NCBI GenBank assembly: GCA_004299275.1
Contig: SCSU01000052.1
Coordinates: 1-51,014 of the forward strand
Origin: Patescibacteria group bacterium
Lineage (GTDB): Bacteria > Patescibacteriota > Patescibacteriia > 2-12-FULL-57-11
Direction of reading: 5' to 3'
Length of the DNA stretch: 51,014 bases
A program made the position numbers and the translations under genes. Position 1 is the stretch's first letter, and every line of letters begins with the position of its first letter. The notes under the pieces were generated by a model that saw nothing but the letters and a program-made list of their open reading frames with translations, did not search any database and was not told the origin of the DNA. Shown piece by piece: positions 36,581-46,409 of this stretch.

Positions 36581-37903
36581 TCATACCCACCCAAGCATTA
36601 GCCCGTTCGCGGCGAAGGCCGCGCCGACGACTAGGGTATAGATTGTGAGCGCGCGGCGGAGGCGCGAGGGCAGAGTTGTATCAGTAATCTCTGCCGCGGT
36701 GATGAGAACAGCGAGCAGAACCGCCGACAGGATAAAAATCGGCTTGGCGTTGCCGCGTTCGAGCGAGCCAAAGCGGACAGTGTTCGCGATAAGCGCCGCG
36801 AGCGAACCGAGGAAAAATATAGCGAGCAAACCGTCGCCATCCGTCAGTTTTTTTCGCGCTCGAAGCAGAAAGCGCGCCAGGGCGAAAAGAAAGACGGGCG
36901 CGAGCGCGGCGCCGAGCCATACCGCTCGCTGTGCCAACCGCAGCCTTGGCGAAAGCTGGCGCTGCGCCAACCGCAGCCTTGGCGAAGGTTGGTCAGGATT
37001 TTTAAGCAAGTCGTCGTAGTCAGTAACAGTCGCGGCAAACACGACCGACCAAAATGAGTTGGAACCTGCGGGCCAAAAGGGCGAGAAGAAAATGTTGCTG
37101 TCCAGGGTCGTAAAAAAATTCGGCGGCAGGATACCCGGTGCTTTTTTTGCCTCAAAGGTGTTCGTAAACGGGCCGCCGAATTGCTTGGCGCTTGTCACAA
37201 GCCAAGGCGAGGCGATGGCGAGCGCTGTCACTGCTAAGAGCAGAGTGGAAATCAATAGTTTGCCAAGATTGGATCTCCTCGGGAGATCCAATCTTGAGGC
37301 AAAACGATAAATCTGCCAAACGACGATGGAAAAAAGGCCGAGGAAGGCCGTGACTTTGGTGAGGAGCGCGAGGCCGATAATTACTCCCGCGGCCAAGGCC
37401 GAGCTTTTTTTGTCTGGGTCTTTTTGATTGGCAGCGTAAAATAGAGCCAAGAGCAGCAAGAGATGCGCCAGTCCTTCGTTAGAAAAAAATGTTGAGGCGG
37501 TCAGCGCCACCGGCAGAGCGGCAGTGAGGAGAAGTGTGAGCGCCGGAGCCGCCGCTTGTTTGGTTCTCTTAAAACTCCACCAGCCGAGCAGGAAAAATGT
37601 CAGCAAGCCGAACGCCGCCGGCAGATAGGGGAGCGTTTTTTTCGCGGCCTCTGCGCCACCGCTCAGAGTTATTATTGGCGCGGCGATGGCGTAAAAAAGC
37701 GGCTCATGCCAAGCCACGTAAGTTTCCTCAAGCGTCGGCAGGCGCCCGGCGGTTGCCAGTATTTCGGCATAACGGAGATGCGCCCCGCCGTCATAGCCCC
37801 AGTAAGGGTTCCAGACCGAGGCGTTATGGAGACGCAGGAAGATGCCAGCCGCGAGTGCGGCGGCGGCCAAGCCCCACCAAAACCATTTTTGCCATGAAGC
37901 CAT
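36581..37903 (-). CDS. GT-C fold (ArnT/PMT-like) polytopic membrane glycosyltransferase
   Basis: GYDGGAHLRY first-loop acidic motif, HEPLFY, SNE, GLALLTK; about 10 hydrophobic segments. Confidence 0.7.
   Translation of the reverse strand: MASWQKWFWWGLAAAALAAGIFLRLHNASVWNPYWGYDGGAHLRYAEILATAGRLPTLEETYVAWHEPLFYAIAAPIITLSGGAEAAKKTLPYLPAAFGLLTFFLLGWWSFKRTKQAAAPALTLLLTAALPVALTASTFFSNEGLAHLLLLLALFYAANQKDPDKKSSALAAGVIIGLALLTKVTAFLGLFSIVVWQIYRFASRLDLPRRSNLGKLLISTLLLAVTALAIASPWLVTSAKQFGGPFTNTFEAKKAPGILPPNFFTTLDSNIFFSPFWPAGSNSFWSVVFAATVTDYDDLLKNPDQPSPRLRLAQRQLSPRLRLAQRAVWLGAALAPVFLFALARFLLRARKKLTDGDGLLAIFFLGSLAALIANTVRFGSLERGNAKPIFILSAVLLAVLITAAEITDTTLPSRLRRALTIYTLVVGAAFAANGLMLGWV
36927..36992. repeat. 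Tandem 2 x 33-bp in-frame hairpin element (family D)
   Basis: cgctgtgccaaccgcagccttggcgaaagctgg / cgctgcgccaaccgcagccttggcgaaggttgg; encodes QPSPRLRLAQR-QLSPRLRLAQR. Confidence 0.88.
37264..37296. repeat. Palindromic element family A, copy 3 (33 bp, in frame in CDS)
   Basis: caagattggatctcctcgggagatccaatcttg; translated within SRLDLPRRSNLG. Confidence 0.9.
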
Positions 37904-37999: not shown

Positions 38000-39112
38000 A
38001 TGAAGATTGCCGTTGTTGTCACCACTTTTCCGCCTTATCACGGCGGGATGGGGAATGTTGCGGAAGCACAGGGGCGTCTGCTGGTCCAGGCCGGGCACGA
38101 GGTGACGGTTTTCACAACCGTCGCCGGCGCGGCGGCAGGCGGCTACGTTTTGCGGCGCCTGCGGCCGCTCCTCCGCATCGGGAACGGTGCCCTGATACCG
38201 CAGCTTTTTTGGCGGCTCCGCGGGTTTGACGCCGTCCTGCTCCACTGGCCGGCTTTCGGGTTGCTTGAGGCCGCACTGGTCTGGCGCGCGATTTTTGGCC
38301 ACCGCAGCCGTTTTTTTGTTTATTATCACATGGATGCGGCGGCCGCCGGCGTTCGCGGTTTAATCTTTGCCCTCTACAACCGGATGCTGCTGCCGCTCCT
38401 TTTACGCGCCGCCGACCTAATTTTGGTATCCTCGCGCGACTACGCGGCCCAAGGGTTGCTCGGAAAAGCGCCGGAGGCGGTGCGCCAAAAAATTCGCGAA
38501 ATTCCGCTCGCGGTGGACACGGAATTTTTTTCTCCCGGCGGCTGCGGCTCCGGGGAGCGCGAGCATTTTGGATTGGCTGAAAAAAATATTTTATTTGTCG
38601 GCGGCATGGACCGCGCTCACGATTTTAAGGGTGTGCCGATTCTGCTTAGCGCTTTCGCCGCCGCGGCTATCCCCGACGCGCGAGTGCACTTGGTTGGAGA
38701 CGGCGAACTTCGGGAGTCATATGAACGACAAGCTCAGGAGTTGGGACTCGCGACAGCGGCGCGTTTCCACGGCCGGCTCAAGCGGGATGAGCTCCTGACG
38801 CTTTATCGCTGTTCTGGCCTCCTGGTCTTGCCATCGCTAAATCAGTCCGAGGCCTTTGGTCTAACACTTTTGGAAGCAATGGCCGCGGGCAAACCGGTGA
38901 TTGCCTCTAATCTTCCCGGCGTGCGCACCGTGGTTACGGACGATGTCGGCTGGCTCGCGCCACCGGGCGATACGCTGGCCTTAGCTCGCCTCTTGGAGGA
39001 AGTTTGGCGCGCTCCGGAACGGCTTTTGGCCAAAGGCCAGGCCGCGCGACGGCGAGTTTTGGAAAATTACAGTTTAGAATGTCTGCGGCGGGTGTTACGC
39101 GAAATTATATGA
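38000..39112 (+). CDS. Glycosyltransferase family 4
   Basis: FPPYHGG, LFVGG...KG, EAFGLTLLEAMAAGKPVIAS. Confidence 0.92.
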   Translation: MKIAVVVTTFPPYHGGMGNVAEAQGRLLVQAGHEVTVFTTVAGAAAGGYVLRRLRPLLRIGNGALIPQLFWRLRGFDAVLLHWPAFGLLEAALVWRAIFGHRSRFFVYYHMDAAAAGVRGLIFALYNRMLLPLLLRAADLILVSSRDYAAQGLLGKAPEAVRQKIREIPLAVDTEFFSPGGCGSGEREHFGLAEKNILFVGGMDRAHDFKGVPILLSAFAAAAIPDARVHLVGDGELRESYERQAQELGLATAARFHGRLKRDELLTLYRCSGLLVLPSLNQSEAFGLTLLEAMAAGKPVIASNLPGVRTVVTDDVGWLAPPGDTLALARLLEEVWRAPERLLAKGQAARRRVLENYSLECLRRVLREII

Positions 39113-40296
39113 AGTTACTTGTCGTCTCTTCGCTCTGGCCGCCGGCCGGCGGCGGGGCGGAAATTGTCGCGCGCCGCACCGCTCGTCTCCTCGCCGCGAG
39201 GGGAGACGAGGTTATTGTGGTTAGGAGCGCTCGGCCGGACGAACCAAGGTATCGAGAGCAAGATGAAGAGGGAATGAAGGTTATTTGTTACCGACCTTGG
39301 AATGTTGGAACCGTTTTTAATTTATCAAAATTTGGTTTACCGCGCCGAACGCTCTGGCACATGCTCGACGCCACCAATTTTTTAAGCGCCAAGATTTTCC
39401 GCCGGATTTTGGAAAAAGAACGGCCGGATGCCGTGATCTCCCACGGACTTAAAGGTCTGGGTTACCTTCTACCCCGCACCGCCAAAAAATTCGGCACCAA
39501 GACGATTCACGTGCTCCACGACGTCCAGTTGATTGAACCATCGGGTATTGCCGAGCTTGATGTTGTGCCGACCGCGAGCAGGCGACTGTGGAGCGCCTAT
39601 ACCCGCAAACTTTTCGGCTCGCCCGACGCGGTGCTCTTTCCCTCTCATTGGCTTATGGAACTTTCAAAAAAGTGGGGATTTTTTCCAGAATCATCCTGCC
39701 GTGTGGTTAGAAATCCGGTTGAGAGCGTGACGAGGTCAGACCTCCTCGGGAGGTCTGACCTCGTGCCAGCGGCTCGCTCGCGTACAGCCCGCACGCTTCT
39801 TTTCCTCGGACAGCTTGAGCGTCACAAAGGAATCCGCGAACTGCTCCAGGCGGCGCGGGTAATTTCCTCCGACTATCGTCTGCTCGTCGTCGGTGACGGC
39901 GCGCTCGCGGATTTGGTAAGAGCGGAAGCCGCGCGCAATCCGCGCGTGAGCTATCTGGGCCGGCGCGAGGGAGCGGCGCTCGAGGAAGTTTGGACTGAGA
40001 CAGATTTAGTCATCGTGCCTTCCATTTGCGCCGAAAACGCGCCCAACGTGATTCAGGAAGCCGCGAACCGCGGCTTGCCGGTTATCGCCAGCCGCACGGG
40101 CGGCATTCCGGAGCTCGTTAAAGAAGGGGAGACCGGCATCTTGGTGCCGCCAGGCGACGTTTCTGTTTTGAGTCAGGCGATTGAGGCGCAATTAGGGAAA
40201 ACAGTGAATGACGAAATGAGGCAAGCGATGAGCGATCTGGCGCGGAGCTGGAGCAGTGAGCTGTTTCTTGGCGAATTAAAGGCCGTAATTGCCTAA
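39109..40296 (+). CDS. Glycosyltransferase family 4
   Basis: GGAE, FLGQLERHKG, ENAPNVIQEA..GLPVIASRTGGIPE; ATG 39109 overlaps the upstream stop. Confidence 0.9.
   Translation: MKLLVVSSLWPPAGGGAEIVARRTARLLAARGDEVIVVRSARPDEPRYREQDEEGMKVICYRPWNVGTVFNLSKFGLPRRTLWHMLDATNFLSAKIFRRILEKERPDAVISHGLKGLGYLLPRTAKKFGTKTIHVLHDVQLIEPSGIAELDVVPTASRRLWSAYTRKLFGSPDAVLFPSHWLMELSKKWGFFPESSCRVVRNPVESVTRSDLLGRSDLVPAARSRTARTLLFLGQLERHKGIRELLQAARVISSDYRLLVVGDGALADLVRAEAARNPRVSYLGRREGAALEEVWTETDLVIVPSICAENAPNVIQEAANRGLPVIASRTGGIPELVKEGETGILVPPGDVSVLSQAIEAQLGKTVNDEMRQAMSDLARSWSSELFLGELKAVIA
39731..39763. repeat. Palindromic element family A variant, copy 4 (33 bp, in frame in GT4)
   Basis: cgaggtcagacctcctcgggaggtctgacctcg; translated within TRSDLLGRSDLV in the interdomain linker. 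Confidence 0.88.
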
Positions 40297-41115: not shown

Positions 41116-41256
41116 CCCTCGACCTGCCTACTCCGCCAGTTGGCGGATTCGGCAGGCAGGCAAGCTCGGGAACTATAATGAACCCAACCACGCCCCGACG
41201 TAACGTCGGGGCGGTATTCGGGCGAACGTAATAAAGTCTCCGAGTGTAATCGAGGG
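41116..41256. repeat. Composite nested hairpin repeat cluster
   Basis: Outer ccctcga..ctcggg / ccgag..tcgaggg arms enclosing cctgcct..aggcagg (itself enclosing tccgccagttggcgga) and ccccgacgtaacgtcgggg. Confidence 0.7.
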
Positions 41257-44279: not shown

Positions 44280-46409
44280 TCACCTTCGGTATTCAAATAT
44301 CATCACCTTGCCGCTGGCGATTGACCAAAAGCTGTCGGCGGTTTTTTGCGCTTCGGCATCGAGTTGCGGAAAGCGTTTCCAGTAGTCGTGGAGCATCAGG
44401 TAAACCGTATCCACGCCGTAATCGTCCAGCACTTTTTGCATCAGCTCGCGCGTCGGACCATTGTATGTCGCCTCGAGATAGTAGCCGTAAAGCTTGAGAC
44501 TGCCAGATGGGTGTGAGTAATAGAATTCGTCTTTAACGTAGCGGGAAAAACCGTAGCGCCAGATTTCCGCCGCCGCCGCGGTTTGGTTGGCGAGAACAAC
44601 ATAACTGCCGCTTGCCCGTGTGTGGAGGAAATCCACGGCTTCCACGGTCGCCGCGGAAACGCTCCGGTTGCCGGTTTTTTCTTCCGGGTCAACTCGGGGA
44701 TAGGCCAGATAGACTGCGGCGGGGACGGCGAGCGACAAGGCCAGCGCGAGAGCCAGACGGCGGTAGGGAGTTCGCAAAAATTTTTCGGCAATGAGGATTG
44801 CTCCCGAGAGAGCGAGAGGAAAAAGGAAGATTCCGGCGAGGCCGACAAAGCGGACGGGGAAAATCGCTTGTTCATAACCGATAATGCCCGGGAGTTTGAC
44901 GGCAGCGGCAAGCAGGAAGCCGCCCGCCGCGGTCGCGAGCGCGCCGGCGATGAAGACGCCGGCTAGCCGACGTTCACCCTGCTTCTTTCGGAGCGCGAAA
45001 AGTAAGGCGAGCAGCAGCACGATTAGCGGCAAATAAGTCCGCGCTGAATAGATGAGCGTGCGTCCGGGAGAAAAGGTGCGCAAGGTTGGCGCCGGAAAGA
45101 CGGTTTGCGCGAGCTGGGTGAGCCGTTCGCGGCCGCCTTGGAGCGAGAGCGCTGGCGCGAGGCGGCTTTGGGAGAAAAAGGCCGCGGTGGGGAAGATGAG
45201 CAATGCCGCGAGGCAGGTGGTAACGAATCCTCGGCGGAGCCGAGGATTTTTTACGCGCGCTCGGGAGTAGGCGAGCGCGAGCAGGAGCAAGGCGGGAACG
45301 CCGGCGAGTGGATGGACGGCGAGCGCGGCTAGCGCGGCGGCAAGAGGTAAGAGCCAGCGTTCTTTTTGCTGGATGGCGCGGAAGGCAAAAACCGCCGCAA
45401 GCAGGGCGAGGGCATTGGCGATGCCTTGCGGCGTGGTAGCGATAAAGTCTGCAAGCGGTCCGAAGGCGGCCAATAAAATTGCCAAGGGGAGAGAGGTGGT
45501 AAGTAGAGCGGCAGAGACGAGCGCGAGCCAGCCGACAGCCGGACCGGCAAAACGATTGACCTCATGGAGCGGCAGAGCGGTCAGCCGCGAGAACGACACT
45601 AAATCAACATAGGCGCCGATGTAGTAGGGTGTTTTGGGAAGCACGGCGCCGTTCGCGGCAATCTCGCGCATGGCCGCCTCGTGGATAAAGGGGTCAAAGC
45701 CGTAGCCGATTTTATAAATCGCGGCGCCGGCAAAAAGTCCGAGACCGAGAGTGAATGCGGCGAGAATGGCGGCGAGCCGCCGTTCGGTGAGTTTTGTTCC
45801 GAGGGTGACAGCGGCAAAGACAGCCAAGCCGAGGAGCGGCAAAAATCGCGGCGAGACAACTTCCCATGGCGTGCGGATGGCTTCGACTGTTCCCGAGTTA
45901 AAAAGAATTACGGCCGCTAAAACGAGTGAGGTTAAACCAATAAGAGCGACAAGCAATTCAAGTTTCGAGGTCCCGAGTTTCGAGATTGGATCTCCCCCGC
46001 CTACGCTAAAGCTTCCTCCTTCGCTTGCGCTACGGCGGACAGGTCGGCGGGCAGGCGTGGAGATCCAATCTCGTCCAGCTGCACCCCAAGCAAAAAAACC
46101 GGCAACCGCGCCGAGCGCGAGTAAGGCGACGATTGCGAACAAATTCCATTGCCAGAGGTAATAGACAGCCGTGGCGGCAATGGTCCACGAGGCGACGACC
46201 AAGAGCGCGCCGCGAATAACCAAGGTCAGACCTCCTGCAGGAGGTCTGACCTTGGACGCCACCGCGCTGGAAAGCAAAAACCCGTACAAAAGCATTGCCG
46301 GCACTCCCAAAAAAGGCGTATGAAACACAGCGGCATTCAAGGCCAGAGCGGCTACCGCGAGCGCCACCCCCATGCTATAGTGTTTGCGATTAAGGCGCAG
46401 AAATTTCAT
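44280..46409 (-). CDS. Large polytopic membrane protein, probable GT-C fold
   Basis: 709 aa, many hydrophobic segments, GYGFDPFIH loop motif, soluble C-terminal domain; carries two in-frame repeat insertions. Confidence 0.6.
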   Translation of the reverse strand: MKFLRLNRKHYSMGVALAVAALALNAAVFHTPFLGVPAMLLYGFLLSSAVASKVRPPAGGLTLVIRGALLVVASWTIAATAVYYLWQWNLFAIVALLALGAVAGFFAWGAAGRDWISTPARRPVRRSASEGGSFSVGGGDPISKLGTSKLELLVALIGLTSLVLAAVILFNSGTVEAIRTPWEVVSPRFLPLLGLAVFAAVTLGTKLTERRLAAILAAFTLGLGLFAGAAIYKIGYGFDPFIHEAAMREIAANGAVLPKTPYYIGAYVDLVSFSRLTALPLHEVNRFAGPAVGWLALVSAALLTTSLPLAILLAAFGPLADFIATTPQGIANALALLAAVFAFRAIQQKERWLLPLAAALAALAVHPLAGVPALLLLALAYSRARVKNPRLRRGFVTTCLAALLIFPTAAFFSQSRLAPALSLQGGRERLTQLAQTVFPAPTLRTFSPGRTLIYSARTYLPLIVLLLALLFALRKKQGERRLAGVFIAGALATAAGGFLLAAAVKLPGIIGYEQAIFPVRFVGLAGIFLFPLALSGAILIAEKFLRTPYRRLALALALSLAVPAAVYLAYPRVDPEEKTGNRSVSAATVEAVDFLHTRASGSYVVLANQTAAAAEIWRYGFSRYVKDEFYYSHPSGSLKLYGYYLEATYNGPTRELMQKVLDDYGVDTVYLMLHDYWKRFPQLDAEAQKTADSFWSIASGKVMIFEYRR
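45981..46073. repeat. Triple-nested in-frame repeat (family A 33 bp containing family D 30 bp containing family D 30 bp)
   Basis: cgagattggatctcc[cccgcctacgctaaagcttc[ctccttcgcttgcgctacggcggacaggtc]ggcgggcagg]cgt ggagatccaatctcg = 93 bp. Confidence 0.85.
46220..46255. repeat. Palindromic element family A variant (36-bp perfect palindrome, in frame)
   Basis: ccaaggtcagacctcctgcaggaggtctgaccttgg (SKVRPPAGGLTLV). Confidence 0.88.

Follow-up and report, generated by a model that had tools for sequence, protein, structure and literature searches.

A stack of nested hairpin repeats in frame within a membrane-protein gene of a groundwater Patescibacterium

We compared a 93-nt stack of nested hairpins, at 45981–46073 of a contig from the draft genome of an ultra-small groundwater Patescibacterium (1.0 Mb, 73 contigs, 56.7% G+C), with the closest described systems of palindromic repeats. 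The contig, C67, is referred to below as the window, meaning the whole stretch of 51,014 nt; proteins encoded on it have homologues whose names are those of Patescibacteria. Repetitive extragenic palindromic (REP) sequences, their hairpin-forming doublets (REPINs) and the REP-associated tyrosine transposases (RAYTs) resemble the repeats found here in that the palindromic units are short, occur in tens of copies and are confined to a lineage, according to the available text of PMC3733652, PMC3337134 and PMC3116915. REPs within genes that add 20–30 amino acids, including in uvrB, have already been described in the available part of PMC3733652; that part, and the corresponding part of PMC1779305, also mention Rickettsia palindromic elements (RPEs). 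A further likeness to REPIN–RAYT systems is that the units form inverted, hairpin-forming doublets and that a Y1 (HUH) transposase gene is bordered by its cognate units. As for RPEs, Ogata et al. are said to have reported in 2000 that these are palindromic repeats lying in frame in conserved genes. The present repeats resemble them as in-frame palindromic insertions in conserved genes of a small genome, which add a peptide and leave the gene unbroken. By contrast, RPEs are about 100–150 bp long and have no known transposase, whereas the modules described here measure 30–36 bp and one family comes with a RAYT-like gene, a distinction drawn from descriptions. Nesting of modules is, to our knowledge, not a described feature of RPEs. 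Full-text literature searches found no description of REP or RAYT elements in Patescibacteria.

The stack consists of two perfect inverted arms, 100% complementary over 15 nt, around 63 nt of other sequence, and it lies in an open reading frame (ORF) for a membrane protein (Table 1). On balance, the 93 bp are probably a composite of two kinds of hairpin repeat, namely a doublet of a REPIN-like family, here called A, and one two-level unit of a family called D; the composite lies in frame between transmembrane segments and probably originated in two steps. In the first step, an A hairpin (33 bp, a REPIN-like inverted doublet) would have inserted into the gene. In the second, a D-type unit of 60 bp would have entered the single-stranded apex of the A hairpin at the junction of CTCC and CGN. 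Copies in genes would survive only if their length is a multiple of three, they are free of stop codons and they lie in a tolerant loop; such a filter would be the reason why every layer 'preserves frame', with 31 extra residues as the outcome. Within this reading we infer the order of events, transposition guided by single-stranded hairpins, the enzyme that would move D and the translation of the insert.

Table 1. Positions of the repeat modules and of the host ORF in the window, and of the A-type doublets at the Y1 transposase gene on contig C55
Feature	Position	Strand	Remarks
Host ORF	44280..46409	-	709 aa, open; polytopic membrane protein
Left arm, A-type (REPIN-like) hairpin	45981..45995	.	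CGAGATTGGATCTCC; the 15-mer is a mini-hairpin
Outer D-type module, 5' part	45996..46013	+	6-nt stem strand, TAC, GC, TAAA, GCT; boundary to the inner module ambiguous by 2 nt
Inner D-type module, 30 nt	46014..46043	+	Stem TCCTCC/GGCGGA (one mismatch), loop TTCGC-TTGC-GCTAC, tail CAGG
Outer D-type module, 3' part	46044..46055	+	TC, stem strand GGCGGG, tail CAGG
Residual loop of the A-type hairpin, 3 nt (CGT)	46056..46058	.	
Right arm, A-type hairpin	46059..46073	.	Exact reverse complement of CGAGATTGGATCTCC
Second repeat in the same ORF, perfect 36-nt palindrome, A superfamily	46220..46255	.	Encodes KVRPPAGGLTLV
A-type doublets at the C55 Y1 gene	L014 1273-1302, 1898-1925, 1986-2015		

A preliminary description of this DNA had proposed such a layered anatomy, and we found it to be real. 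The arms are perfect, and cutting out the inner 30 nt, placed as in that description, leaves a 30-mer that matches a contiguous stretch of another contig (C63:1283–1312) in 29 of 30 positions (E = 3.9e-9), so that the outer D module is genuinely interrupted. The 'TC duplication' suggested at the same time is merely a 2-nt ambiguity of the junction, because the inner unit can be read as 46014–46043, rather than 46016–46045, without any duplication. An assembly artefact or a chance palindrome has next to no probability as an explanation. Although the draft is in 73 contigs and contigs from other runs break at a nearby perfect palindrome, each of two groundwater runs, which may be the source samples of the genome, yielded a 2224-nt contig that spans 45600–46249, and with it all 93 nt, with 0 differences (Logan contigs). 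The arm and module families also occur far above chance, and the fold energy of the locus as a single strand lies well below that of shuffled controls (z = -5.2 for DNA and -4.3 for the mRNA strand). Logan contigs of one study contained no joints that skip the 93-nt stack, a search in which rare alleles would not show. We also considered whether repeats of these kinds cause the contig breaks of the draft and rejected the idea, as contig ends show no enrichment for them (3 and 1 of 146 ends).

The outer layer belongs to a large family. With up to 3 mismatches allowed, its arm, CGAGATTGGATCTCC, is found 10 times in the window, against an expectation of 1.53, and none of 100 shuffles reached 10. 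In a genome-wide census of perfect hairpins with arms of at least 12 nt, 53 of the 250 found were members of the A superfamily, whose arms end in GAYCTCC and whose subfamilies keep their complementarity through paired changes. Because each 15-nt arm is itself a small palindrome (CGAGAT-TGG-ATCTCG, with a 5–6-bp stem and a 3-nt loop), the usual 33-nt A element is an inverted doublet of mini-hairpins; next to a Y1 gene, direct doublets of the 15-mer occur as well. Among 38 inverted arm pairs in the genome, 32 enclose loops of 3–5 nt (3 nt in 23, 4 nt in 8 and 5 nt in 1) and 4 enclose none, whereas long loops are found only in the 93-nt stack (63 nt) and at C31:3963–4058 (66 nt). The A-superfamily pattern has 35 copies in the source genome but none in any of 40 relatives, of which six belong to the same family; the superfamily is a recent, lineage-specific expansion. 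Set against a crude call of ORFs of at least 100 aa (869 ORFs covering 85.6% of the genome), 29 of the 53 perfect A hairpins lie inside ORFs, in all three frames, 7 lie at their edges and 17 between them. No target-site duplication surrounds the A hairpin of the stack, which thus lacks the combination of terminal inverted repeats and target-site duplication by which miniature inverted-repeat transposable elements are recognized.

The two inner layers are of another kind. A D module consists of a 6-nt stem strand, TWC, GC, four loop bases, GC, TWC, the complementary stem strand and a CAGG-like tail; the stems vary between copies yet remain complementary. Matches to the loop core with at least 5 of 6 stem pairs number 25 in the genome, compared with 3–9 in local shuffles. 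Free-standing relatives exist for both layers of the stack, the outer one at C63 and single modules of the inner type at C10:48119–48148, C69:15163–15188 and C15:8655–8680; the preliminary description had made its account depend on such copies. In the stack, the inner D module is inserted into the 3' loop strand of the outer one, after GCT and before TC. Other longer D forms, in which the first module encloses either a second one or a different palindrome, have the enclosed element at the tetraloop; they occur on C13, C16, C27, C52 and C31. In a 38-nt variant at 41123–41160 of the window, a palindrome replaces the mini-stem and loop, and this variant lies inside a composite repeat, tccctcgR ... 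GCTCGGGAac, of which the genome has about 14 copies.

We found that the 60 nt made up by the two D layers are not peculiar to this genome. When 401 genomes of the class were searched by BLAST with the 60-mer, at least 15 from other families had matches over its full length at 80–88% identity; many further matches covered the inner module only or the outer half only (positions 1–20, matched at 100% in more than 10 other genomes). The aligned copies share common junctions and a fixed architecture, and both stems and both 2-bp mini-stems, four helices in all, covary. Across 14 genomes, 95.1% of the alignment cells were paired and 7 of 16 pairs had changed on both sides, a level that none of 500 shuffles reached, and sliding the partner columns brought pairing down to 33–49%. 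Over 30 sequences the figure was 94.6%, in an alignment that had been fitted to the covariance model. When 150 other genomes from across the phylum were scanned with this model, built from the aligned two-level copies, 27 gave matches, and a single genome had as many as 14 copies. These data suggest that the inner two layers are one copy of a widespread, multi-copy two-level unit that is conserved across Patescibacteria. In other genomes (loci L021 (G086), L080 (G486), L075 and L029), copies of the two-level unit have additional insertions in their outer tetraloop; the length of one copy is 90 nt, and a partial third level is present at one of these loci. What is new in the finding, and unexplained, is the nested D unit with its spread across the phylum; its conservation offers a handle with which to trace the exchange of repeats among Patescibacteria.

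Phylum-wide conservation, covarying stems and conserved loop motifs, without an evident dedicated transposase, could also mean that the D unit is a structured RNA or single-stranded DNA signal that serves the host, is bound by a conserved factor and is under selection, and that its presence in an ORF is incidental or regulatory. We give this explanation little credence. Copies lie in both orientations relative to genes, in intergenic as well as coding sequence, and number from 0 to 14 per genome. Stem mismatches, compared by strand to tell constraint on RNA from constraint on DNA, are mostly transitions and, at 10 G–T against 16 A–C (10 A–C without the terminal pair), show no strand bias, a result that favours neither level. 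A search of Rfam 15 over 45800–46300 gave no family match, only weak chance matches to microRNAs and small RNAs with E values of at least 0.32. Mobile GC clusters and hairpins of mitochondria are likewise GC-rich hairpin repeats with conserved stems and occasional locations in coding or rRNA sequence, and the papers on them cite double-hairpin elements of Allomyces (PMC4478555 and PMC2800124, from the text available). They differ in being organellar, in residing in AT-rich genomes and in targeting AG, and the word 'nested' is absent from the available text of both papers. A phylum-wide two-level unit with a fixed junction has no counterpart in those clusters.

D-type units recur inside hairpins of the genome, as the preliminary description had supposed: four lie in the apices of A-type hairpins and others inside D-type units. 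The four comprise one module on C7, a 20-nt palindrome on C22 and two modules each on C31 and C67, all in the same orientation and all at the point where the arm end CTCC meets the loop CGN. A-type loops make up about 0.02% of the genome and there are some 30 D-type units, so that three or more chance hits would have a probability of about 6e-8 (a rough Poisson estimate that assumes independence). Because family A is lineage specific, the entries of D into A hairpins must be recent. These positions lend support to the targeting of hairpin apices. In IS200/IS605 elements, insertion takes place 3' of a short target and without target-site duplication. Insertion of this type would fit the junctions of the 93-nt stack, as there is no duplication there, and single-stranded hairpin apices as targets would fit the chemistry of Y1 transposases, by analogy with the IS200/IS605 mechanism. 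The likeness to that group extends to a Y1 HUH enzyme and to hairpin recognition on single-stranded DNA (PMC6006769, in the part available); the difference is that the repeats here carry no gene and are known from sequence alone. If this picture is right, the nesting is a case in nature on which to test whether single-strand transposition targets hairpin loops. D units beside the tccctcgR ... GCTCGGGAac repeat were considered as additional apex cases and rejected, since on folding their 3' flank pairs with the downstream arm.

A wider proposal, which is possible but tentative, is that a self-nesting, phylum-wide module (26–30 nt, with TWCGC-N4-GCTWC loop motifs and free covarying stems) enters fixed single-stranded sites of other hairpins, including its own copies and lineage-specific REPINs, and that the resulting recursive elements have repeatedly been fixed in frame in essential genes. 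If this proposal is true, hairpin-targeting mobile DNA of a class not yet described would be steadily supplying new peptide segments to ultra-small genomes.

Two of the loci with long or filled A loops resemble the stack. At C31:3963–4058, a sibling of 96 nt consists of an A hairpin, a D module within it and a further module in the tetraloop, and it is intergenic by the crude ORF call. At C7:33313–33375, a 63-nt element made of an A hairpin and a single 30-nt D module lies either immediately upstream of a pilin-like gene (motif GFTLMEVL) or in its leader; the true start codon of this gene may lie at the hairpin end. The C31 sibling speaks for the idea that a ready-made 93-nt composite, A arms together with the 60-mer, moved in from another locus in one event, and REPIN-type hairpins do move whole (PMC3337134, available text). 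However, the assembly has no second copy of the exact composite, and the C31 sibling differs both in its stems and in the site of its inner module, which is the tetraloop. We therefore regard a single event as improbable.

Two genes for Y1_Tnp (HUH) proteins are present in the genome, on C55 and C45; both products score above the Pfam Y1_Tnp cut-off, share 48% identity with each other and contain the HUH motif MPNHFHL. The gene on C55 (L014 1252–2015) carries doublets of the A-type 15-mer at its 3' end and upstream of the start, and a further one within its coding sequence. One inverted doublet supplies C-terminal codons (VRDWISRDPIS), and the internal direct doublet encodes IKIGSREIGSRKP where the paralogue carries other residues. 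The C45 gene is bordered by a different hairpin family, and in three other genomes Y1 genes are likewise bordered by genome-specific hairpins, in one case with a small GC hairpin nested in the apex. The RAYT-like Y1 (HUH) transposase on C55 is the likely mobilizing enzyme of family A, and the gene with its A repeats has the layout of a REPtron, as in REPIN–RAYT systems (PMC3733652 and PMC3337134). We take the outer layer to be a REPIN-like element with a RAYT-like partner, of a known kind that is new to the phylum as far as our literature searches show. Should this be so, the candidate phyla radiation would possess an active REPIN/RAYT-like system. The A units nevertheless differ from described REPs in being only 15 nt long, in lacking a GTAG or CGTC tag at the end and in lying, for more than half of their perfect copies, inside crude ORFs rather than in extragenic sequence; here, moreover, a repeat of another type nests in the REPIN apex. 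D modules do carry GTAG or GAAG on the reverse strand, but inside the hairpin and not at its end.

We next turn to what the stack adds to the protein. As previously claimed, the 709-aa ORF stays open and has gained 31 residues between hydrophobic segments: the stack encodes residues 113–143, RDWISTPARRPVRRSASEGGSFSVGGGDPIS (predicted from the open frame), which lie between hydropathy windows at 87–112 and 147–175. The host protein has no match in Pfam and belongs to a family of membrane proteins specific to Patescibacteria; a GT-C-like fold is no more than a lead. Its homologues, at up to 48% identity, lack the 31-residue segment, so that ancestral retention by orthologues, which would have spoken against insertion, was not seen. 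Frame preservation can be understood as what selection left behind, without any special mechanism, because the 93-nt element is open in three of six reading frames and the gene uses one of them. Plain translation of the insert would also be simpler than splicing or translational bypass, since the insert is a multiple of three in length and free of stops in the frame used, and inserts in UvrB, LigA and LeuRS are likewise in frame.

Because in-frame hairpin insertions are also found in these three proteins, peptide gain by hairpin repeats appears to be general in the source genome. In UvrB (C6:15081–17138), a solved homologue has a gap of exactly 15 aa opposite the hairpin-coded RREIGSPAEIRSQKS; the NAD-dependent DNA ligase LigA (C7:29135–31207) has about 28 extra aa around its hairpin, and the leucyl-tRNA synthetase LeuRS (C36:5857–8412) about 26 extra aa at 378–403, each relative to a solved homologue. 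A third hairpin family accounts for a DVEHPN-type segment, likewise in LeuRS. In DnaK (C69:13351–15243), the C-terminal tail (YSASAKATAD...) holds a D-type module in the sense frame, and about 5 of 27 two-level copies in other genomes lie within ORFs of at least 280 aa, in the same two reading frames as in the source genome. If this picture holds, hairpins lie in frame in essential genes (UvrB, LigA and LeuRS) and in the DnaK tail of a 1-Mb genome. Palindromic repeats within genes are among the few one-step routes to new protein sequence, and repeats of this kind are likely to seed many spurious low-complexity 'hypothetical proteins' in the annotations of Patescibacteria genomes. The phrase 'direct evidence of peptide accretion', used in the preliminary description, is nonetheless too strong, since the evidence is an open frame at the DNA level and precedents exist in Rickettsia RPEs and in the intragenic REPs (PMC3733652, available text). 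Overall, the observation made there stands and its interpretation does so in part.

Several observations weigh against a composite built in two steps with a RAYT-like enzyme at work. Against the NCBIfam RAYT model NF047646, with its cut-off of 80, the two Y1 proteins score only 46.1 and 42.8 bits, which also sets them apart from described REPIN–RAYT systems. Neither Y1 gene of the source genome is bordered by D-type modules. Among the 16 genomes whose two-level copies were best, 12 had Y1_Tnp, compared with 193 of 401 overall, a weak link among relatives that are not independent; the remaining 4 of the 16 show no Y1_Tnp. In the host protein, the loop minus the insert would be shorter than in any homologue. 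Two hairpin-coded segments, residues 729–739 of LeuRS and the 36-nt palindrome of the host ORF, replace residues rather than add them, the latter because homologues carry as many or more residues at that position; pure insertion is therefore not the whole story, and replacement or conversion may occur alongside it. As for the 60-mer, the source genome has no second good two-level copy, the next best scoring 37.9 bits, and the assembly therefore offers no donor for a pre-formed unit. No allele of the locus with an empty site or one module was found among the homologues, which are at most 48% identical, and the contigs that cover the region.

The points concerning the 60-mer also favour the main rival, three separate insertions of A, the outer 30-mer and the inner 30-mer, each into the loop of the previous one, which we consider unlikely. 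The outer module, once the inner one is excised, is nearly identical to the single copy at C63, as a local module-into-module event would produce; single modules of both types stand alone in the source genome; intermediates exist at other loci, such as the one-module element on C7; and both junctions follow a CTYC motif (CTCC and CTTC). However, the same module-in-module geometry and junction recur in many unrelated genomes at 80–88% identity, so the 60-mer either travels whole or is reassembled each time by a process of strict site specificity. The sequence type found at C63 is, moreover, the consensus of the whole class, and the 29/30 match is hence no proof of a local origin. The layering in the preliminary claim of three insertions thus holds, but the three successive events do not follow from it, since the 60-nt unit exists in many genomes and two events or even one suffice. 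States with no, one and two inserts, which had been expected among orthologues, were seen at different loci (bare A hairpins, one module on C7, two on C67 and C31) but not as alleles of one site: the nearest relatives are 38–48% identical and cannot be aligned in this loop, and the sole 100% match (P0001) is the same sequence, truncated. We keep to the two-step composite as the favoured history.

Some further observations concern tRNA genes and the rest of the window. At C15:1–460, a tRNA-like gene that is absent from the ARAGORN list has duplicated 5' and 3' fragments, each adjoining D-type modules, and the locus may be a site of integration or rearrangement. The D module there adjoins duplicated tRNA halves and is not a tRNA intron. 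ARAGORN lists only 20 tRNA genes in the genome and gives four of these introns too long to be plausible; either tRNA genes are missing from the assembly or some of them are disrupted. Inside the 36-nt palindrome of the host ORF, contigs from two public runs break off. Two further genes of the window contain in-frame A-type hairpins, one for a group-1 glycosyltransferase-like protein at 39004–40296 (RSDLLGRSDL) and one for an ArnT-like membrane protein at 36581–37903 (RLDLPRRSNL), the latter also with a tandem SPRLRLAQR repeat.

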